Part shown: piece by piece, positions 23,178 to 32,992 of the stretch
How positions within the stretch are numbered: the first letter of the stretch is position 1
Layout: every line of letters starts with the position of its first letter
NCBI GenBank assembly: GCA_900556185.1
Contig: USNN01000001.1
Span: 1-35,675, forward strand
Direction of reading: 5' to 3'
DNA from: an uncultured Eubacteriales bacterium
GTDB lineage: Bacteria; Bacillota; Clostridia; Christensenellales; UBA1242
DNA length: 35,675 nucleotides
The notes under the pieces: generated by a model
The model's input: the letters and a program-made list of their open reading frames with translations, nothing else
Databases searched by the model: none
What the model was told of the DNA's origin: nothing
Program-made: the position numbers and the translations under genes

Positions 23178-23540
23178 TTACTCATTTTCAAATATCTTTT
23201 TGTATTCTTCGATTGTTATATACACATCTCTGCCTTCAGGCTTAAATTCAGATATAAACCCGCAAGACTCCATTTGGTCTAAAATTTCCGCTGCTCTAGC
23301 ATAACCAATCATAAACTTTTTTTGAATCATCGCCGTCCCAATTGTTTTAGACTTTATTGCAAGACTAACCACTTCTGGCATTAATGGGTCAAGGTCAGCC
23401 ACACCAAACCATTTTAGGTCTATATCTGAAAACTTTGTCGCACTTCCCGTTTTACTGGTTAATTCGTCAAGCGTTTCTTCAAACACTTTCGTTAAACGCT
23501 CTCTCCATACCGAATTTACTTGTTCATCTTTTTCACTCAT
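23178..23540 (-). CDS. small standalone FtsK-gamma (winged-helix, KOPS-reader type) domain protein
   Basis: The C-terminal 65 aa (DPLMPEVVSLAIKSKTIGTAMIQKKFMIGYARAAEILDQMESCGFIS) follow the FtsK gamma consensus (DpL...a...v....kaS.s.lQr...IGY.RAa.l.d.mE..G.v). The start lies 2 nt after the WYL gene stop. Confidence 0.8.
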   Translation of the reverse strand: MSEKDEQVNSVWRERLTKVFEETLDELTSKTGSATKFSDIDLKWFGVADLDPLMPEVVSLAIKSKTIGTAMIQKKFMIGYARAAEILDQMESCGFISEFKPEGRDVYITIEEYKKIFENE

Positions 23541-23542
23541 AA

Positions 23543-24535
23543 CTACACCCCATATTTATTACAAATTAAACTTAATTGCTCTCTAATTTTTTCTCTTGTG
23601 CTTTCAGGACTTAAAACCTCAACACTAGTGCCATATTGCAACGCCCAATAAACCAACGCCTGCTCATTCACCTTAAGCATAACTTCAATTCCCTCGCCCG
23701 CTTCTTTTATCCTAACCTTATCCCCAAACCAATCAATAACATCATTAATCGCTTTTTTGTTGTTTAATTTAATCACTGCATCCACCGATTCGCCCGCCAT
23801 CATATAAATGTGTTCGTTAATGTAAGCGTCTTGCTTAAAGTTCTCCATATTCGGTAAAGACTTAATTGGCTTAACATCATCAGTTAAAATTTCAATGTTA
23901 CTAATATTTTCGACCTTGTAGTTTGCAAGATTGTCGTATTTATCATAATTACAAACCAGATAATACTTGCCGTTGTTGTTCACCAAAAAGTATGGGTTCA
24001 TAATAAACACCTTTCCGTCAGCCCTTGGCGTAAACATTTTCATTGCATTATACTCATTATATTGAAACGCAACTTTTTTGCCTTGCTCTATTGCTCGGTC
24101 TAAAACCTCAATATTTTTAAACATTTCAGCACTTCGCTTTCTAGAGACCTCATCCACCTTGTATATGTGCTTATATTTTTTCACATCATACTTATTTCTA
24201 CCCCTAATTAGCTTTTGAATAAGAATTTTCGCTTCTCTAGACGAAATACTTTTAGACGAATAAATTGCATCAACTAAATACATCACTTCGGCATCATCAA
24301 AATCTCGCTCTGCTAAATAACAACCCTTTTTGTGTACCTTTTCAATTATATCCCCCGCATCAATCAAAGTGTCCACATTCCGAGCCACACTTTTCACGTC
24401 TGGGCTAATTCCATACAACATTTCAAGTTTAGCCACAATATCCGCATATGTTAACACATGGTTACAATCTGAATAATATTTTAAAATATCCAGCACATAC
24501 AATAAAATTATTTTCTTATCGCTTTCTGACGCCAC
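23543..24535 (-). CDS. WYL-domain transcriptional regulator (HTH-WYL-WCX architecture; BrxR/CapW/PafBC-like)
   Basis: N-terminal wHTH region. The central WYL-type beta domain reads KVAFQYNEY...NPYFLVNNNGKYYLVCNY...LANYKVENISNIEIL. A C-terminal extension follows. The start is GTG, preceded by an AAAGGAG ribosome-binding site. Confidence 0.8.
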   Translation of the reverse strand: MASESDKKIILLYVLDILKYYSDCNHVLTYADIVAKLEMLYGISPDVKSVARNVDTLIDAGDIIEKVHKKGCYLAERDFDDAEVMYLVDAIYSSKSISSREAKILIQKLIRGRNKYDVKKYKHIYKVDEVSRKRSAEMFKNIEVLDRAIEQGKKVAFQYNEYNAMKMFTPRADGKVFIMNPYFLVNNNGKYYLVCNYDKYDNLANYKVENISNIEILTDDVKPIKSLPNMENFKQDAYINEHIYMMAGESVDAVIKLNNKKAINDVIDWFGDKVRIKEAGEGIEVMLKVNEQALVYWALQYGTSVEVLSPESTREKIREQLSLICNKYGV

Positions 24536-24793: not shown

Positions 24794-25126
24794 CTACATC
24801 TCAAAACTTTCAGACTCTTTTAATTGAGATGCTACAACTTTAAGCAGATACTTAACCCTTTTCCTTTTTAGTTTTCTGCATAAACTTTCTAGCGTCCGCC
24901 TTAGAGTGTTTACATTCACCTTATCTGCCACCATTTCTTCGTCATAATTAACCCCACAATTATTGTAGTGGTCAGAGATTCTTAAAGTTACAATTGCCCC
25001 ATCAAAATGAATATACACATACACCGAAGACGACAACCCGCTTTTCACCACATCAAACGTATACCCATTATATTGCTTAACCACCTGACTAGTAATTGCT
25101 TTAATTTTGTTATAGTCTATGCCCAT
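24794..25126 (-). CDS. hypothetical small protein
   Basis: I placed the start at MGIDYNK (25126) because AAGGAGA lies upstream. The product is 110 aa with a basic C-terminal helix (CRKLKRKRVKYLLK). No recognisable domain. Confidence 0.55.
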   Translation of the reverse strand: MGIDYNKIKAITSQVVKQYNGYTFDVVKSGLSSSVYVYIHFDGAIVTLRISDHYNNCGVNYDEEMVADKVNVNTLRRTLESLCRKLKRKRVKYLLKVVASQLKESESFEM

Positions 25127-25318
25127 AATCTTTCTCCTTACACGCATATAATAACAAAACCGAAATCCCAAAAATCGGATTTAAAATATTATTTTTAAAA
25201 AATAATTAAAAAAGTGCCAATATAATCACAACCCGCTAGGGCATCATACATTGACACTTTTAATGATAATTTTATGCTAATTGCGACATTTTGAGAGTAT
25301 TTCACAATTGAACGCTTA

Positions 25319-25819
25319 TTATAATTCTATTTCGGTAAACATCAATCCTGATAATTCTCCATCTTTTATTTGGGTATATGCATTGTTAAAAAATTTATAC
25401 GTTATATTTTCAGAATTAATGTCGCCAATTTGTAAAATTTTTTGTTCTTGGTCGTAAATTATATTACTGGTGTTAAATTCTATATAACTTCCAGTACCTG
25501 GGTATAATTTGTCTTCAGTACTAAGAGTTAAGATGGCGTCTTTTATAACACTTGGTAGTTTTAGTTTCATAATTTTTATTTTGTTACTAGTTAACTCTCC
25601 ATCAAAAGACGAAACCCTTTTTGTTTCATCATCAATATTTAGATTGAAAAATCTATCTTCTAAATACAACGAAAAACTTCCGCCACCATGCAAAGATAAC
25701 AACAATATTTCGCCATCCACATCCTTTTTGTATATCCGAACCGCTTGGTATGCTTCTAAAGTCCGCATATCTACATTTTCTTCGACTTTAAATTTGTAAT
25801 TTTTATACCTACTTTGCAT
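25319..25819 (-). CDS. hypothetical protein (possible orphan immunity-type protein)
   Basis: 166-aa ORF with a GGAG ribosome-binding site. It is acidic and soluble, with no recognisable domain. Confidence 0.55.
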   Translation of the reverse strand: MQSRYKNYKFKVEENVDMRTLEAYQAVRIYKKDVDGEILLLSLHGGGSFSLYLEDRFFNLNIDDETKRVSSFDGELTSNKIKIMKLKLPSVIKDAILTLSTEDKLYPGTGSYIEFNTSNIIYDQEQKILQIGDINSENITYKFFNNAYTQIKDGELSGLMFTEIEL

Positions 25820-25863: not shown

Positions 25864-26496
25864 CTACTCCATAACATCTTCTTCGGCTTGGGTATCTTGG
25901 TCGCTTAAGGTTAAATGGCTTACCTTAAAGTTTGCCACCTTATAGTCTAAATCTTCTTCGTTGTATTCCATAATTGAATAATCATCATAACCATACCCAC
26001 CAAGCCCAAACTTCCCAGCTATCGACTTATCGCCGACAACCGTCCAATTCTCGTGTTCGTAATCAAAGCCAGTATCAAACATTCTATATATTTGCTTTAG
26101 TGTTAAGTTAGATGGCAACACCAAATCAATATCGGCATCGTTATCAAATGAACCGTAATCTAACATTATTGAATTTTCAAATGGAACAATAATTTTTGCC
26201 TCTTTCAAACCTCTAAAACAACCATCGCAAATTTTTACACTTCCAGTAATATAATTTCGCAATTCTCTTTTTGTAATAAACCCAACAGTCCCACAAGAGT
26301 TTTTTTCATTTATGCTTGGCATATCTAACTTAACATCTTCAACCAATTTTGGTAAAACTATCGTGTCAAAATTTTTGTCTGATAAAAGAATAAATCTTTT
26401 TATTTTATTATCTTGAACCTCAAAACCATACTCAGGTTGATTAGTATCCTTGCTAAACTTAATATACATATTTCCACATCTTCTTGGCAAATTCAT
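25864..26496 (-). CDS. hypothetical protein with weak resemblance to BspA-type leucine-rich repeats
   Basis: I placed the start at MNLPRR (26496) because TAGGAG lies upstream. Segments such as IVLPKLVEDV, VKICDGCFRGLKEAKIIVPFENSIMLDYGSF and LVLPSNL recall LRR_5 repeats. The C-terminus is acidic. Confidence 0.5.
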   Translation of the reverse strand: MNLPRRCGNMYIKFSKDTNQPEYGFEVQDNKIKRFILLSDKNFDTIVLPKLVEDVKLDMPSINEKNSCGTVGFITKRELRNYITGSVKICDGCFRGLKEAKIIVPFENSIMLDYGSFDNDADIDLVLPSNLTLKQIYRMFDTGFDYEHENWTVVGDKSIAGKFGLGGYGYDDYSIMEYNEEDLDYKVANFKVSHLTLSDQDTQAEEDVME

Positions 26497-26654
26497 TTTC
26501 TTACTCCTACACGCTTTAATTTCTTGTTTAATTACATAAAGCATACCATAGAAATAGAACTATTTCAATTCCTATTTTTAATATACCCATAAAACCTTTT
26601 TGCTTATATGTTTTTAACAAACTCCCGCCCAGCCGAAACATCTCCTTGTTTTAT

Positions 26655-26690
26655 ATTACAAAAACCACCAATATTAAAATTGATGGTTTT
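26655..26690 (-). terminator. rho-independent terminator ending the protease/toxin/immunity transcription unit
   Basis: AACCACCAAT (26663-26672) pairs with ATTGATGGTT (26679-26688), with one G-U pair. On the minus strand a T-run follows. It lies about 25 nt past the stop at 26715. Confidence 0.7.
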
Positions 26691-26714
26691 CTTTTATTAT
26701 TCTATTTATAATAT

Positions 26715-27251
26715 TTATTTTGAATTACAAGTTTCTGAATTATTAAATTTTTTAGTCATCGCATCAAAAGGCTTGCTAAAATTATACATTTTAAATAGTT
26801 TTTCGGAATAGTTGCCGACACTATCATTTACAAACTGTTTAGGATTGTTAGAAATATATTCAACTATATTATCTGTGATTATATTTTTTCTTCCATTAGA
26901 AGTAAGAATACTAAAAGAATCTTTATTTTGTTCGGCATATAAAACAATCGTCTGTTTCTTATACTCAAAAACAATTTTTTTAGGCAAATTTATTTCAGTT
27001 AGCAAACTTTTATCTATATTGTAACCAGTATAATTTTCTATCTCACCAATACACATATTTAATGCGTCTTGCTCATTTTTCCCAACTCCTACAGCAGCTC
27101 CCCACGTTTCGTCATTATCTAAAAATAATAAATTTGACTTTACAGAATAACTCGTTTTCTTAAACATATTATCTTTACTAAATTCGATAATAATTTTGTG
27201 AGGTCCTGCATTTAATTGTAAATGCTTATATCTATAATCATATTCAATCAT
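26715..27251 (-). CDS. hypothetical protein, putative cognate immunity protein
   Basis: 178-aa soluble ORF with no signal peptide. It starts 9 nt after the stop of the toxin-like gene, and a terminator follows it. Confidence 0.6.
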   Translation of the reverse strand: MIEYDYRYKHLQLNAGPHKIIIEFSKDNMFKKTSYSVKSNLLFLDNDETWGAAVGVGKNEQDALNMCIGEIENYTGYNIDKSLLTEINLPKKIVFEYKKQTIVLYAEQNKDSFSILTSNGRKNIITDNIVEYISNNPKQFVNDSVGNYSEKLFKMYNFSKPFDAMTKKFNNSETCNSK

Positions 27252-27260
27252 ATTTTTCTC

Positions 27261-28346
27261 CTAGTATAGCCCAAATGAAACTATTATTATTTCTTTTGCG
27301 GTTTTTGCCATATCAATATAAAATTTTCCCACCTTATATCTGTATACATTTGCTGTGGCACCTTCAACCAATTTTTTAGCAACTATGTTTTTGTCGACAA
27401 CTTCTTTTGCTGTTTGAGCAGCCATTCTAGAATATTCTTTAACGTTGGATGCGCCCACTTGTGCCCCGTGTTTATTGAAATGATAATTTAAACACTCTTT
27501 AGATGAATTAAATGACCCTTTACCAAATCCAACAGTCATTTTAGAACCTGCACCCATAATGGTCCCCACGGACCATCCTGTTAGACCACCCAACACAGCA
27601 CCGCCAATTAAACCTCCTACAACTGCCCAAATTTGCACTTCACCTGTTTCTTGATAAGAAATAACTCCTCCAGCAACACCGCCAGTAAGTCCACCAGCCA
27701 CAGCACCAGCTGCAATGCAGGCACCTAAACCTGCACCACATGTTGCTACAACCGCAGCAGCTACCGCTGATACCACAACGACCGCAACCACCGCTACCAC
27801 AACTTTTTTCCACAATTTCTTGAACCATCCGCAATTAGCAATCATTCCAGCATCTTGCATTTCACTTAATAAGACACATTCACCATCTACATCTAAGTAA
27901 GCATCGATTTCCCCATTTTCATTATAAAATGCAATCCCTTGAATTTCATCAATTTCTATTTTGCCGTCAGAATTAACGGTTACAGCAGATAGAGTTACAA
28001 GTCCAGTTTCAGCATCAAAACTAAAATTATATTTGACTTGCACATTCAAATTATCTTGGGAGCTCGCATCCGCAACTAAATCAAGCTCACCAAAATCGCC
28101 CAAATTAAGTGTTTGGAATCCTTCAAAGGTTGTTAAACTTCCCTCTGTAACTAATTTAGCATCTTCAAATTCTTCAAAAATACTTTCATAGTCAATTGAA
28201 TTTTGCGTAACTTCAATAGTCCTAGTTACTTCTTGATTGCTATTTGTAGTTGGCGTATCAATATAAGATGATGAGCAACATACAAACCCACACAAAAACG
28301 CTAGTACAAATGAAATAAACGCAACATGAAATTTTTTAATTTTCAT
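27261..28346 (-). CDS. exported/membrane protein: signal peptide, N-terminal beta-rich domain, Gly/Ala/Val glycine-zipper (pre-toxin-TG-like) region, C-terminal toxin-like module
   Basis: Strong ribosome-binding site (AGAGGAGGG). The N-terminal hydrophobic leader ends in CGFVCCSSS. Residues 181-267 are almost purely G/A/V with repeated GGLTG motifs. Residues 280-361 form a distinct soluble module carrying YHFNKHG. Confidence 0.75.
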   Translation of the reverse strand: MKIKKFHVAFISFVLAFLCGFVCCSSSYIDTPTTNSNQEVTRTIEVTQNSIDYESIFEEFEDAKLVTEGSLTTFEGFQTLNLGDFGELDLVADASSQDNLNVQVKYNFSFDAETGLVTLSAVTVNSDGKIEIDEIQGIAFYNENGEIDAYLDVDGECVLLSEMQDAGMIANCGWFKKLWKKVVVAVVAVVVVSAVAAAVVATCGAGLGACIAAGAVAGGLTGGVAGGVISYQETGEVQIWAVVGGLIGGAVLGGLTGWSVGTIMGAGSKMTVGFGKGSFNSSKECLNYHFNKHGAQVGASNVKEYSRMAAQTAKEVVDKNIVAKKLVEGATANVYRYKVGKFYIDMAKTAKEIIIVSFGLY

Positions 28347-28409
28347 AATTTCCCTCCTCTTTGAAAATTAATATATTTACAATCTTACATGTAGCAAAAT
28401 TGAAAATAT

Positions 28410-29129
28410 CTAGTTTGTTCCCACATACTCCATCACAACACTTATTGGGATACAGTAAGAAATACCATAAACAATATTGTTAGATTTGTCTTTTAGCCTA
28501 AATGTTGTAAGACCTATAAGTTCACCATTAGAATTTATTAAAGCACCACCACTATTACCATCTGAAATTGTTAAATCGCACTGAATAACATTTCTCACAA
28601 TATTATTGTATGAAACATTAATATGCGGTATAGATACAACTCCTTGAGTTAAACTCAATCCATAATTGCTCATATTCCCAACAGCATAAACTTTATCGCC
28701 AACTTTAAGTTTGCTGTCATCTCCGATTTTTATTGGTTTCAACACCCTGCCTGTATTATTTAATTTCAATACTGCGATATCCTGTTCGATATCATATTTT
28801 ACGACATCAACTTGCCTATAATCTTCTTCATCCACAAATCTGATAAAAATTGTTTCAAACAAATAAGTTTCAGACAGTTTGGTATATGTAATTACATGTG
28901 CATTAGTAACAATCATTCCATCTTCAGCAATAATTTCACCAGTCCCATAACTTGTTCCTATAGATTCTGTTTCCGCTTTAATTTCAATTATTGAATTTTG
29001 ACACATATTAAAAATGCTACTAGCCGTGAAGGGTCTAGTAGCTAAAAAATAGATGTTAAGCCCAAGACTTACCATACTAATAACTATTGGAACTATAATC
29101 AAAATTGCAAAAATATGTTTTCTTTTCAT
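28410..29129 (-). CDS. trypsin-like (S1/S1C) serine protease with N-terminal membrane anchor, no PDZ domain
   Basis: The catalytic triad context is present: TNAHVI (His), DIAVLKL (Asp) and GNSGGALIN (Ser). The N-terminal TM helix is IFAILIIVPIVISMVSLGLNIYFL. Confidence 0.85.
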   Translation of the reverse strand: MKRKHIFAILIIVPIVISMVSLGLNIYFLATRPFTASSIFNMCQNSIIEIKAETESIGTSYGTGEIIAEDGMIVTNAHVITYTKLSETYLFETIFIRFVDEEDYRQVDVVKYDIEQDIAVLKLNNTGRVLKPIKIGDDSKLKVGDKVYAVGNMSNYGLSLTQGVVSIPHINVSYNNIVRNVIQCDLTISDGNSGGALINSNGELIGLTTFRLKDKSNNIVYGISYCIPISVVMEYVGTN

Positions 29130-29139
29130 AATAGTTATG

Positions 29140-29167
29140 ATTATAGCACAAAAATTTAAGAAGTCAA
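29140..29167 (-). promoter_or_regulatory. extended -10 promoter placed only ~10 nt upstream of the protease ATG
   Basis: On the minus strand: TTGACT (29167-29162), a 16-nt spacer, then TGcTATAAT (-10 at 29145-29140). Only cataactatt separates the -10 element from the ATG at 29129, and there is no Shine-Dalgarno sequence. Confidence 0.55.
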
Positions 29168-30751: not shown

Positions 30752-31099
30752 TTAGTCCAATAAAAAACTTATTGGCAAAACCATAACCGTGCCCTTAGCG
30801 TCGCTTTTAAAATTGGCTATAGCGTAAATTTCTTTAACTATTGGGTATGCTAGTTCTTCTTTTACCACTAGTAGCACCATTTCCTTTTCGGGAGCAATTT
30901 CCATACCAAATAACCGTTTTTTACTAACTGTTTCGCCCCGACCGTTCACAATCATAGCACCTTTCCCACCTGCATTTGTGGCACTCTTAACCACTTCGTA
31001 AGCGTATCCCTTTTTAACGATAGCCACCACAAGTTTATGTTGTTGTTCTTTTATTTCGTCATTAAAAATTAAGTCGTTTGGTGTTGTTTCTTTTTCCAT
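30752..31099 (-). CDS. P-II-like (GlnB-fold) small signalling protein
   Basis: 115 aa. The beta-alpha-beta pattern (KLVVAIVKKGYAYEVVKSATNAGGKGAMIVNGRG...KEMVLLVV) is typical of P-II family proteins found next to DUF1538 genes. Confidence 0.7.
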   Translation of the reverse strand: MEKETTPNDLIFNDEIKEQQHKLVVAIVKKGYAYEVVKSATNAGGKGAMIVNGRGETVSKKRLFGMEIAPEKEMVLLVVKEELAYPIVKEIYAIANFKSDAKGTVMVLPISFLLD

Positions 31100-31108
31100 A
31101 ACTCCCTC

Positions 31109-31474
31109 CTAAATAAATAAACCCTTAGACCCCATATATCCGTCTACATCCAAGGTAAACCCAAGCCCATTACCAGGTTCGGCAAAATTAAATTCGGCAT
31201 TAAGTGCAACAAGCAAGTTGTCTGCGTCTTCTTTTCTTGCACACGCAAACACAAGCACATTTTTAATAGTTTGAATACCAAGTAACTCCAAACTCTTATT
31301 TTTACTAATACCTTCGCCAACGGCACTAATAACCACTCTGCCACCAAGTTCACCTATTCGCCTTATTAAGTTCTTTTCAAATTCGGGCTTAACAATAATT
31401 ACAATAAACTTTAACTCGTCTATTTCGTCTAGTGTAAAAACTTTTTTTACACTGCCATTATCTTTAACTTTCAT
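31109..31474 (-). CDS. P-II-like (GlnB-fold) small protein, divergent paralogue
   Basis: 121 aa with FIVIIVKPEFEKNLIRRIGELGGRVVISAVGEG...VLVFACARKEDAD. Its start abuts the DUF1538 stop with no spacer. Confidence 0.6.
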   Translation of the reverse strand: MKVKDNGSVKKVFTLDEIDELKFIVIIVKPEFEKNLIRRIGELGGRVVISAVGEGISKNKSLELLGIQTIKNVLVFACARKEDADNLLVALNAEFNFAEPGNGLGFTLDVDGYMGSKGLFI

Positions 31475-32992
31475 TTATCTTTCCCCCAACACAAATTGGT
31501 CGTGCACCTTTTGTAGTTTAGATATATTAGAATATTCATCTTCAGTTCTAGACAAACTAACCAAAATTTTAGCGGTCTTCCTCGCTTCTCTAGATAGTAA
31601 CACTCTATACGCAATACCAAGTATTTCCATAACTAAAATTGGAGTCATACACAAAATGGCTATCATTCCAAAGCCACCCAAACTAGACCCGCTTAGTCCC
31701 ATAATTATTGGGAACAGAAATGCGACTGTCATAGTGCCAGTTGCAACGCCCGAACTATCAAAAGCAATGGCAACAAATAGGTTTGGCGTGAACGCCATAA
31801 GCAAAAACGCAAGCCCATAAATAATGCCAACATACCACCAAATAGAAATTCCAAATCTAACTTTTAAAACGCAAAGCACCATAGACGCCATCACCGAAAC
31901 AGCAATAGCTACCACAACAACCCCGCTTTTTATGTTTCGGTTTGTGGTTTCTTCAATTTGGTTTGCTAAAATTCGGATAGTTGGTTCACTAAACACAATT
32001 AAAAACCCAAGTAATGCACAAATTAAAATAATTATGCCAGTGTTATTAATATTTCTCAAAATTCCACCTAAACATTCACCCATACCAGAAAGCCCATAGT
32101 TAATGCCAAACAAAAATAGATAGAACCCAACAAAAGTAATAAGCGAGCCAACAATAAGTTTCTTCTTTTCTTGCTTAGATATTTTAATGAAAATGGCTTC
32201 AAATATAAAGAATACAATAACCAGTGGAACAATTGAAAAACTTACATCTTTAAGCGTTTCTAGCCATAGTGGAGTGCTAGATGTTTCCACCACTTCGCCC
32301 CCGTTAGACCTACCAGTAATTATAGTTAAAATAAGAACGGCGATAATAGGACCAACGGACGACATTGCAATAAAGCCAAAATTGTCTTCATCTTTTCGCT
32401 TCGCACCCGAGGTTATACCAGCAATACCAACACCCAAGGCTAGTAAAAATGGCGACGTAACAACGCCAGTGGTGTTCCCACCCGTATCTAAACTCATACT
32501 AAGCGCATCGCTTCCAGCAAATATTGCAAGAATAAAGCATACCGCATACGAAATTAAAAGAGTTAATTTTAAACTAAATTTGGTTGCCACTCTAATTAGT
32601 GCAAGCGATATATACACACCCACACCAACACCAGCAACAATTAAAAACACGAACTTGTTAAAATTGAACCCTGCCCCAATAACTTCACCTGCAAACACTT
32701 GCATATCTGGCTCGGCTATGGTTGAAAAAATTCCAAACACAAGTCCAAATATTATATAAACAAAAAAGTGATTATTAGACTGCACCGAACCGCCGACAAA
32801 CTCACCCATCGGTTCAATACTTTTTTCAATACCAATTAAAAATATTACTTGCCCAACAATTAAAATTCCGCACCCAATAAAAAAGTTGACAAAAGTATTT
32901 GTGTCTATTTTCTGCACAAATAAGTGCATAACAAGCACAAACACAATGATTGGTAAAAGAGAAAACAAAATTGTTTTAAATTTTTTAATCAT
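31475..32992 (-). CDS. DUF1538-family polytopic membrane protein (two-repeat putative transporter)
   Basis: 505 aa with about 12 TM helices in two similar halves. The genomic pairing with P-II-like genes is characteristic of this family. Confidence 0.7.
   Translation of the reverse strand: MIKKFKTILFSLLPIIVFVLVMHLFVQKIDTNTFVNFFIGCGILIVGQVIFLIGIEKSIEPMGEFVGGSVQSNNHFFVYIIFGLVFGIFSTIAEPDMQVFAGEVIGAGFNFNKFVFLIVAGVGVGVYISLALIRVATKFSLKLTLLISYAVCFILAIFAGSDALSMSLDTGGNTTGVVTSPFLLALGVGIAGITSGAKRKDEDNFGFIAMSSVGPIIAVLILTIITGRSNGGEVVETSSTPLWLETLKDVSFSIVPLVIVFFIFEAIFIKISKQEKKKLIVGSLITFVGFYLFLFGINYGLSGMGECLGGILRNINNTGIIILICALLGFLIVFSEPTIRILANQIEETTNRNIKSGVVVVAIAVSVMASMVLCVLKVRFGISIWWYVGIIYGLAFLLMAFTPNLFVAIAFDSSGVATGTMTVAFLFPIIMGLSGSSLGGFGMIAILCMTPILVMEILGIAYRVLLSREARKTAKILVSLSRTEDEYSNISKLQKVHDQFVLGER

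Follow-up and report, generated by a model that had tools for sequence, protein, structure and literature searches.

We identify a three-gene locus that very probably encodes a protease-linked polymorphic toxin-immunity system for interbacterial competition, a reading drawn from its sequence and from that of its relatives. The locus lies in a stretch of 35,675 nucleotides (nt) of contig USNN01000001.1 from an uncultured Eubacteriales bacterium, hereafter the window, and its three genes all run on the minus strand, at the coordinates that an initial annotation of this DNA had assigned to them. In the direction of reading they encode a 239-amino-acid (aa) S1 serine protease (28410-29129), a 361-aa polymorphic toxin (27261-28346, coordinates rechecked) and a 178-aa protein (26715-27251) whose gene carries its own ribosome-binding site (RBS) and is a candidate cognate immunity gene. 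The closest known system is ABP/S8-PTS, in which the partners of a secreted S8 peptidase are a BetaH-toxin fusion exported by Sec and an immunity protein of the cytoplasm (AbpP-AbpT-AbpI).

When co-occurrence of the three genes outside the window genome was checked, the trio was found conserved across 49 genome loci, which rules out chance association. These loci were retrieved with a profile of the toxin N-terminus; all come from metagenome-assembled genomes, and 47 contain a toxin open reading frame (ORF). Most are labelled Clostridia, Christensenella/Christensenellaceae, Candidatus Onthoplasma or Candidatus Coproplasma, and a few are labelled Acholeplasmataceae or Anaeroplasmataceae. Several cassettes, or arrays with at least seven toxin-immunity pairs, are present in some genomes. 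The identical locus is also present on metagenome scaffolds.

A constant head, exchangeable tails and matched candidate immunity genes

Family comparison identifies the 361-aa protein as a polymorphic toxin with a constant head and an exchangeable tip. A database search with the protein returned 123 homologues. The family is conserved from the leader to about residue 268 and its sequences are unrelated beyond that point, so that homologues covering only the N-terminal 40-70% of the window toxin bear different tails. At least 11 unrelated tail classes occur, spanning the last ~90-200 residues. Pfam recognises Ntox35 (1.1e-9), Tox-REase-5 (1.4e-11) and DUF4258 (6.6e-6) on the tails of relatives, all above cut-offs, and a Pfam toxin domain reaches its cut-off on the tails of only 8 of 68 diverse family members. 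The toxin with a discrete C-terminal tip that the initial annotation had described is borne out by this polymorphism, which includes known toxin domains. A tblastn search of the window found no orphan toxin tips or extra N-domains.

Downstream genes change with the tails. In 45 toxin/downstream-ORF pairs each tail class is matched by its own downstream ORF class, and the immunity gene that had been proposed from its position belongs to a series in which ORF class tracks tail class. We judged this pairing from a per-class table, because several classes fell into one cluster when the immunity ORFs were grouped by single linkage, and the adjusted Rand index (ARI) was then only 0.24. As first annotated, the 178-aa ORF starts 9 nt past the toxin stop and encodes a soluble protein, with no transmembrane (TM)-like or hydrophobic segment. 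Among the 49 loci, its homologues occur only after toxins with the same tail (L001 and L005), as an orphan (L004, two genes after a toxin with a different tail) or as a fragment (L001). The 178-aa family is narrow, comprising 27 clusters, and the protein has no PDB sequence match.

The window also carries a gene matched to a tail that it does not encode. The 166-aa ORF at 25319-25819 (minus strand) is homologous to the ORF found directly 3' of toxins with a '...KWTVEG...VHFLF' tail (phmmer E 1e-82 to 1e-11 against ORFs in L002, L003, L006, L009, L023 and L024), and in L005 its homologue comes after the homologue of the 178-aa gene. The '...KWTVEG...VHFLF' class is absent from the window, and we classify 25319-25819 as an orphan immunity gene because its homologues directly follow toxins of another tail class. 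Orphan immunity genes are a classic feature of polymorphic toxin loci.

Two further observations concern the family at large. Its commonest tail superfamily ends '...GY(F/Y)xHYH...H(A/C)F(Y/F)(G/Y)' and has no Pfam model; examples lie at 10605-11813 of L005, 6998-8101 of L008, 6992-8095 of L010 and 6220-7413 of L021, and its subclasses are each paired with their own downstream ORF class. This tail is an undescribed candidate toxin domain, possibly a metal-binding one. On a single Acholeplasmataceae-labelled contig (CAUTQZ010000010.1; L043, 2066-13428, together with L044), one protease gene is followed by at least seven tandem toxin-immunity pairs, which are of a single tail class throughout and have a protease fragment in their midst.

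A dedicated S1 protease

Given its linkage to the toxin across loci and the invariant triad in 33 homologues, comparative analysis marks the protease as a conserved, active and dedicated enzyme of the toxin system. Pfam assigns the 239-aa protein to Trypsin_2 (6.7e-25), with Trypsin also matched, and the best NCBIfam matches are to DegP/HtrA/DegS protease cores, all far under the full-length cut-offs. The DegP/HtrA-core match covers positions 49-236 of the 239 aa. Because these matches cover protease cores only, and the NCBIfam scan finds no PDZ domain in the protein, we describe it as lacking one. The catalytic triad consists of H78 (TNAHV), D117 (DIAVL) and S193 (GNSGG), and residues 2-31 form a TM-like segment. 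Domain matches, motifs and TM-like segment together uphold the original description of a membrane-anchored S1 protease with an intact H/D/S triad and no PDZ domain.

We collected 33 distinct toxin-linked homologues of 232-280 aa, with 40-69% identity to the window protease; in every one the His, Asp and Ser and the GNSGG motif are invariant and the N-terminal TM-like segment is present. A protease homologue is found in 40 of the 47 loci with a toxin ORF, directly upstream of the toxin in 32; in the other 8 it lies on the same strand, no more than 3 kb downstream, and the order is toxin-immunity-protease. The remaining 7 represent contig edges, partial genes or the continuation of a tandem array with a protease at its start. 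Protease and toxin genes thus go together in essentially all loci that can be assessed, in agreement with the earlier proposal of a dedicated upstream protease and an unusual maturation route. A housekeeping HtrA lying next to the toxin by chance was rejected on these linkage data, and a degenerate, scaffold-like protease was rejected on the invariance of the triad and GNSGG in the 33 homologues.

Architecture of the constant region

The four-part layout first described for the 361-aa protein, with a leader, an acidic domain, a hydrophobic stretch and a C-terminal module, is upheld. Residues 1-28 (28263-28346, minus strand, as for all toxin segments) form the leader, in which hydropathy and charge define a basic n-region followed by a hydrophobic stretch. 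Conserved among relatives, it presumably serves as a signal peptide for Sec or as a signal anchor. We considered and rejected a lipoprotein, as the Cys lies outside a canonical lipobox and is missing in several relatives.

Residues 29-170 (27837-28262) constitute an acidic, beta-rich N-domain with a net charge of -26, against a family mean of -22.8, and this domain is conserved across more than 120 homologues. The AlphaFold2 (AF2) model of the toxin N-region is of moderate quality, with a mean predicted local distance difference test score (pLDDT) of 74; within it, the N-domain forms seven strands at a pLDDT of about 85-92. Foldseek matches of the N-region to lipocalin, PRELID and SciW had low probability and TM-scores of about 0.2, and were discarded.

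A short junction, residues 171-182 (27801-27836), separates the N-domain from the hydrophobic region. Its sequence, NCGWFKKLWKKV, has a charge of +4 and places an NCGWF motif before a cationic KKLWKK. N171, C172, G173 and F175 are invariant in the family alignment, a dibasic pair lies within 10 residues past NCGWF in 145 of 161 family members, and the first long helix of the AF2 model begins at residue 176. We regard this NCGWF-KK junction as a candidate processing site.

Residues 183-268 (27543-27800) are a glycine-zipper hydrophobic region with 66% Gly/Ala/Val, a Kyte-Doolittle maximum of 3.18 and small-xxx-small repeats. The ~87-aa stretch reported earlier is there, as is the repeated GGLTG motif (two copies), but at this composition 'almost pure' Gly/Ala/Val was an overstatement. 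AF2 places helices at residues 176-202, 207-234 and 239-263, and relatives of the toxin give weak Pfam matches to glycine-zipper families. From composition and modelled helices, the region is probably a membrane-insertion or translocation module. The suggested membership of the PT-TG family did not hold, with no match to Pfam PF14449 at E<=0.1 in the window toxin or in 68 relatives. The Pfam scan also found no LXG, RHS, MuF, CdiA, TPS or PAAR head in the window toxin, and the earlier remark that the usual trafficking domains (LXG, RHS, MuF, CdiA) are missing was correct.

The tip of the window toxin

Residues 269-361 (27264-27542) are the polymorphic C-terminal tip, with a charge of +8. The discrete C-terminal module that had been proposed exists, with the correction that its folded part begins near residue 271 and not at 280. 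An AF2 model built with 23 sequences reaches a pLDDT of 95.8 and has a beta-alpha-alpha topology followed by four strands. The top 50 Foldseek matches of the tip in the PDB are dominated by RelE, ParE, YoeB, YafQ and HigB-type toxins and include a CdiA-CT; the best have probabilities of 0.9-0.98, but E about 1e-2 and TM about 0.5. At the sequence level, the tip has no Pfam match at E<=1 and no PDB match, and these searches returned none of the named BECR family models.

An exhaustive profile search with the tip recovered at least 475 cluster representatives (50% identity) at E<=1e-3. We examined domain position and partner domains in 144 listed matches (P0125-P0268), which are proteins of 77-2194 aa. 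The tip domain ends no more than 16 residues from the C-terminus in all 144 and exactly there in 94. Upstream domains among these listed matches include PT-HINT in 30 and RHS repeats in 15; rarer partners are TPS, Fil_haemagg, DUF637 and PT-VENN in one or two, and DUF4280 in one. Because it keeps its C-terminal position across architectures with different upstream domains, the window tip behaves as a mobile toxin tip shared with RHS, PT-HINT and CdiA-type architectures. A word-index homologue search with the tail alone (88 aa) returned only 4 short proteins, the index being too coarse. A Peptidase_S8 domain is found in the same protein as the tip in 2 of the 144 listed matches.

The conserved tip positions are H289, F290, K292, H293, G298, Y305, R336, Y337 and the Ser and Gly of VSFG. 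H289, K292 and H293 are invariant in tip alignment A3, and in the 144-member alignment A5 the His, His, Arg, Tyr and Ser are at least 90% conserved, this Ser being S357 of VSFG in the last strand. BECR RNases often have conserved catalytic His residues in the helix (PMC13556192, PMC9424270), and colicin D-like members have a Ser/Thr in the fourth strand (PMC9424270). The helix His/Lys/His and the last-strand Ser of the tip fit this published residue pattern; an HxxKH-type motif was not found in the survey of Zhang et al. 2012 (PMC3482391). The tip profile gives a marginal match in the PDB to the CdiA-type chain 8ey4_A (E 0.024), and hhalign aligns the tip with the tail of a Priestia ABP toxin at a probability of 69% (E 4e-5 over 36 columns, a pairwise value without correction for database size). 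By its modelled fold and residue pattern, the tip has a BECR (RelE/ParE-like) fold and is a predicted, probable RNase. The colicin-D/BECR-type RNase guessed at earlier fits the Foldseek matches, the H289/K292/H293 and Ser arrangement, and the weak profile link to the ABP tail.

Expression signals and neighbouring genes

A sigma-70-type promoter (29140-29167, minus strand; TTGACT-16-(TG)-TATAAT) precedes the protease gene. It had been proposed in the initial annotation, and our consensus scan makes it the top-scoring site of the region, with 11 of 12 consensus positions and an extended TG. Because 10 nt separate the end of its -10 hexamer from the protease ATG and a Shine-Dalgarno sequence is absent, unlike the toxin and immunity genes with their strong RBSs, the protease is probably translated from a leaderless or nearly leaderless mRNA, which might keep the protease-to-toxin ratio low. 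In 13 other loci (L001, L004-L008, L010-L013, L039, L041 and L046), where the intergenic sequence around it has otherwise diverged, an equivalent TTGACA-N16-18-TATAAT promoter is found ~9-11 nt upstream of the protease ATG. At the distal end, a 13-bp hairpin followed by a U-run (26660-26691, minus strand) is the probable intrinsic terminator of the three-gene unit, with a folding energy of -14.1 kcal/mol and a z of -4.83; 0 of 200 shuffles fold equally well. The consensus scanner did not call a terminator here, and the one first annotated at 26655-26690 stands on the folding of its hairpin and U-run.

Two soluble ORFs on the minus strand share the region downstream of the cassette with the orphan immunity gene. 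Between cognate and orphan immunity genes lies an acidic ORF of 226 aa (25864-26544), with no Pfam, NCBIfam or PADLOC match and no homologue in the 49 loci; it is found in all three contigs with an identical toxin, where its length is 226 aa (L050) or 210 aa (L051, L052). A small ORF of 125 aa (24794-25171) has no library match and no homologue in the 49 loci. Both may be further orphan immunity genes. Downstream of this toxin island, at 23178-24535 (minus strand), are genes for a 330-aa WYL/WCX-domain regulator and, directly after it, a 120-aa protein with an FtsK-gamma DNA-binding domain. Upstream of the cassette, at 30752-32992 (minus strand), a gene for a 505-aa DUF1538 membrane protein is followed by two tandem P-II-like genes (115 aa and 121 aa). 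As a whole, the window comes from the chromosome of a low-GC Firmicute and carries PolA, GAPDH, aldolase and polysaccharide-synthesis genes.

Proposed mechanism and alternatives

We propose that toxin and protease are exported or inserted via Sec by their N-terminal hydrophobic segments, so that both the acidic and the protease domain would lie on the outer side of the cytoplasmic membrane. The protease would cut the pro-toxin, most plausibly near the NCGWF-KK junction, and cleavage would separate the acidic domain from the cationic and hydrophobic helices, much as the S8 protease acts on BetaH in ABP systems. The exposed glycine-zipper helices could then enter the membrane of a target cell and bring the tip into its cytoplasm, where RNA would be cleaved through metal-independent acid-base catalysis by H289, K292, H293 and S357. 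In the producer and its kin, the cytoplasmic 178-aa protein would bind and block the tip, and the orphan immunity gene would guard against a different tail made by neighbours. The individual mechanistic steps, including cleavage site, diffusible release and RNase activity, are each less certain than the identity of the locus, and we put them at close to even chances. More tentatively still, we suggest that the locus is an independently evolved, S1-protease-activated delivery module, in which the acidic beta domain is a built-in chaperone that shields the zipper helices, and these helices, after cleavage, carry interchangeable tips into Gram-positive gut anaerobes.

Several observations weigh against this proposal. 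Topology is its weak point, and the route of the toxin out of the cell is not explained: the first hydrophobic helix, with its Kyte-Doolittle maximum of 3.18, is expected to stop transfer and stay in the producer membrane, an exported N-domain followed by three helices would put the tip back in the producer cytoplasm, and the KK-x-x-KK cluster before the first helix fits a cytoplasmic position. Net charge is zero or below in 34 of 144 family tails, and because the tails are not uniformly cationic, ABP-style electrostatic entry may not apply. Foldseek found no convincing structural neighbour for the model of the toxin N-region. No Pfam RNase model matches the window tail, and the modelled tip gives a fold match that is only moderate by its E and TM values. 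ParE belongs to the matched superfamily and, sharing the fold, poisons gyrase instead of cutting RNA, and for this reason we treat RNase activity as a prediction.

Because this topology would retain the toxin in the producer, a contact- or vesicle-based variant is a serious rival, and if the overall identity of the locus is right we judge it possible, if on balance doubtful. The toxin would be non-diffusible, anchored by its helices in the producer membrane and acting by contact or through membrane vesicles, and the membrane-anchored protease would only trim off the acidic domain to arm it. An extremely strong hydrophobic segment should indeed be held by the Sec translocon, a long TM-like segment is found at the N-terminus of the protease too, in each of the 33 homologues, and many tails are not cationic, unlike those of diffusible ABP toxins. 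However, protein domain scans of the window found no adhesin, filament or secretion machinery encoded nearby, the closest analogous system is diffusible (PMC13556192), and the odd number of helices would turn the tip toward the producer cytoplasm.

The same inward-facing tip would suit an intracellular defence or abortive-infection module, in which a membrane sensor is joined to an antitoxin-restrained RNase that the protease releases or activates when phage or envelope stress occurs. A RelE/ParE-like fold is characteristic of toxins in toxin-antitoxin systems, the WYL/WCX regulator gene lies 2 kb downstream, and the protease weakly resembles protease domains of some PADLOC models. We nonetheless consider this reading, which the initial annotation had offered as its alternative, highly improbable: tail swapping with matched downstream genes, orphan immunity and tandem arrays are a signature of competition and not of abortive infection, and RHS, PT-HINT and CdiA toxins use the same tail. 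In PADLOC the toxin and the 178-aa protein match no system, and the protease matches generic trypsin-like domains only. We give slightly less credence again to a reading that makes the conserved glycine-zipper region the actual toxin, a pore that depolarises membranes in the manner of TelE, EsxX or TspA, and gives the tails an accessory or targeting role. Glycine-zipper C-termini of type VII secretion system (T7SS) LXG effectors are reported to be membrane-depolarising toxins (PMC10434224, PMC12744356), a precedent that the small-xxx-small repeats of the window toxin recall. Against it, the downstream gene changes along with the tail, not with the zipper region, which is constant; no TM-like segment is present in the candidate immunity proteins, which are soluble; and bona fide nuclease toxin domains are among the tails.

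If the protease-linked toxin-immunity reading is correct, polymorphic toxins that are exported by Sec and activated by a protease would include, besides the S8/BetaH (ABP) systems of Staphylococcus and Bacillus, one with another protease family and another head, and the principle would extend to abundant uncultured Clostridia of the human and animal gut, so that it would look general and not a one-off. The glycine-zipper segment gives a handle on how a toxin might pass the Gram-positive cytoplasmic membrane without a dedicated receptor, and a review of ABP systems calls receptor-free toxin entry an open question (PMC13460014). An independent S1-activated delivery module, if real, would be a second, convergent answer to the problem that ABP systems solve: a cargo carrier that translocates itself, requires Sec but no further secretion machine, and has a dozen or more interchangeable tips, mostly undescribed. 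The toxin family is also a source of new toxin and immunity families, since most tails have no Pfam toxin domain (8 of 68 have one) and the large family of the window tail has no Pfam model.

Comparison with known systems

S8-PTS were predicted in 2022 by Li, Tan & Zhang (PMC9424270), and ABP systems were shown experimentally in 2025-2026, by Colautti et al. (2025, PNAS, as cited in PMC13460014) and by Mwangi et al. (2026, PMC13556192). The ABP protease cleaves BetaH, which frees a cationic amphipathic helix together with the toxin and so activates it (PMC13556192, PMC13460014). BetaH is about 120 aa long and acidic, with a seven-stranded sheet around a C-terminal helix and a dibasic cleavage motif at its end; the peptidase is in most cases encoded upstream of the toxin and in some after the immunity gene (PMC9424270). 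The arrangement that the initial annotation had termed atypical does imply an unusual maturation route, but it is less isolated than that term suggests, as protease-activated, Sec-exported polymorphic toxins have been described since 2022.

The window locus parallels ABP systems in several respects. Both are three-gene units of a serine protease, a polymorphic toxin with a Sec leader and a cytoplasmic immunity protein, and the predicted Sec signals agree, with N-terminal hydrophobic segments on the window toxin and on 33 of 33 proteases, and the immunity protein has none. Both gene orders, with the protease upstream of the toxin or after the immunity gene, are shared. Both toxins have an acidic N-domain, of ~120-140 aa and with about seven modelled strands, followed by a helix with dibasic residues. 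Their tail repertoires overlap (Ntox35, REase type, BECR types), and the tails of the Priestia ABP toxin and the window toxin have a common H-x-x-(K/D)-H-x-x-E-(F/V)-G...Y...A motif.

The differences lie in the protease, the head and the hydrophobic region. The window protease is S1 (HtrA-like) and not S8, whereas the six genuine ABP loci from plasmids that served as controls (L053-L058) all have S8 peptidases. The NF038340 model (BetaH, SAR2788 family) matches two control ABP toxins at 6.9e-46 and 2.9e-58, and gives no match at E<=1 on the window toxin and three relatives. Aligned by hhalign, the N-domain and BetaH profiles reach a probability of 19.8% over 36 columns, and neither ColN-RBD nor TipC is among the Foldseek top 50 for the toxin N-region. 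In the window family a glycine-zipper region of ~85 aa sits before the tail, the tails vary in charge where those of ABP toxins are cationic, and the hosts are uncultured gut Clostridia, compared with Staphylococcus and Bacillus for ABP.

Classical polymorphic toxin systems, including the PrsW-peptidase class (Zhang et al. 2012, PMC3482391), share with the window locus a constant trafficking head with exchangeable C-terminal toxins, an adjacent immunity gene, orphan immunity genes and a processing peptidase linked to release. They differ in that the window peptidase is a separate extracytoplasmic S1 enzyme and not a fused intramembrane PrsW, HINT, ZU5 or caspase-like domain, and in that the window toxin has no LXG, RHS, TPS, PAAR or MuF head. 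Compared with BECR toxins (colicin D/ColD-like, Ntox35, RelE/YoeB/YafQ and the ParE branch), the tip shows the same helix His/Lys/His and last-strand Ser, with an extra N-terminal strand, a second helix and a TM-score of only about 0.5 as differences. The protease resembles HtrA/DegP (S1C) in its trypsin fold, H-D-S triad and GNSGG motif, and differs in having no PDZ domain.

Hydrophobic or glycine-zipper helices before a nuclease-type tip, which could carry the tip across a target membrane, are also found in Tde1, a type VI secretion system (T6SS) effector, and in prePAAR/Rhs effectors with Eag-held TM domains; for Tde1, the glycine zipper is reported to be required for translocation (PMC10240207). 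Delivery from the window locus would instead be Sec-based and protease-dependent, and the protein domain scans of the window found no T6SS, PAAR or Eag genes. A Foldseek match of the N-region to a SciW-bound Rhs1 transmembrane domain (9mvg, rank 46, probability 0.14) was too weak to argue relatedness. Streptomyces umbrella toxin particles likewise pair a trypsin-fold protein with a co-encoded polymorphic toxin in Gram-positive bacteria; there, the trypsin-like UmbA is reportedly a lectin-bearing structural spoke of a multi-protein particle. The window protease, by contrast, is small and membrane-anchored with an invariant triad, and has no Umb-type partner genes.

Neither trypsin nor HtrA is mentioned in the 2012 survey (PMC3482391), the S8-PTS paper (PMC9424270) or the ABP review (PMC13460014), and glycine or glycine-zipper terms have no match in the first two. 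Our literature searches found no description of an S1 protease combined with a glycine-zipper polymorphic toxin. Protease-activated, Sec-exported toxins are already known; what is different here is the S1 protease, a head that is not BetaH and the added glycine-zipper region.

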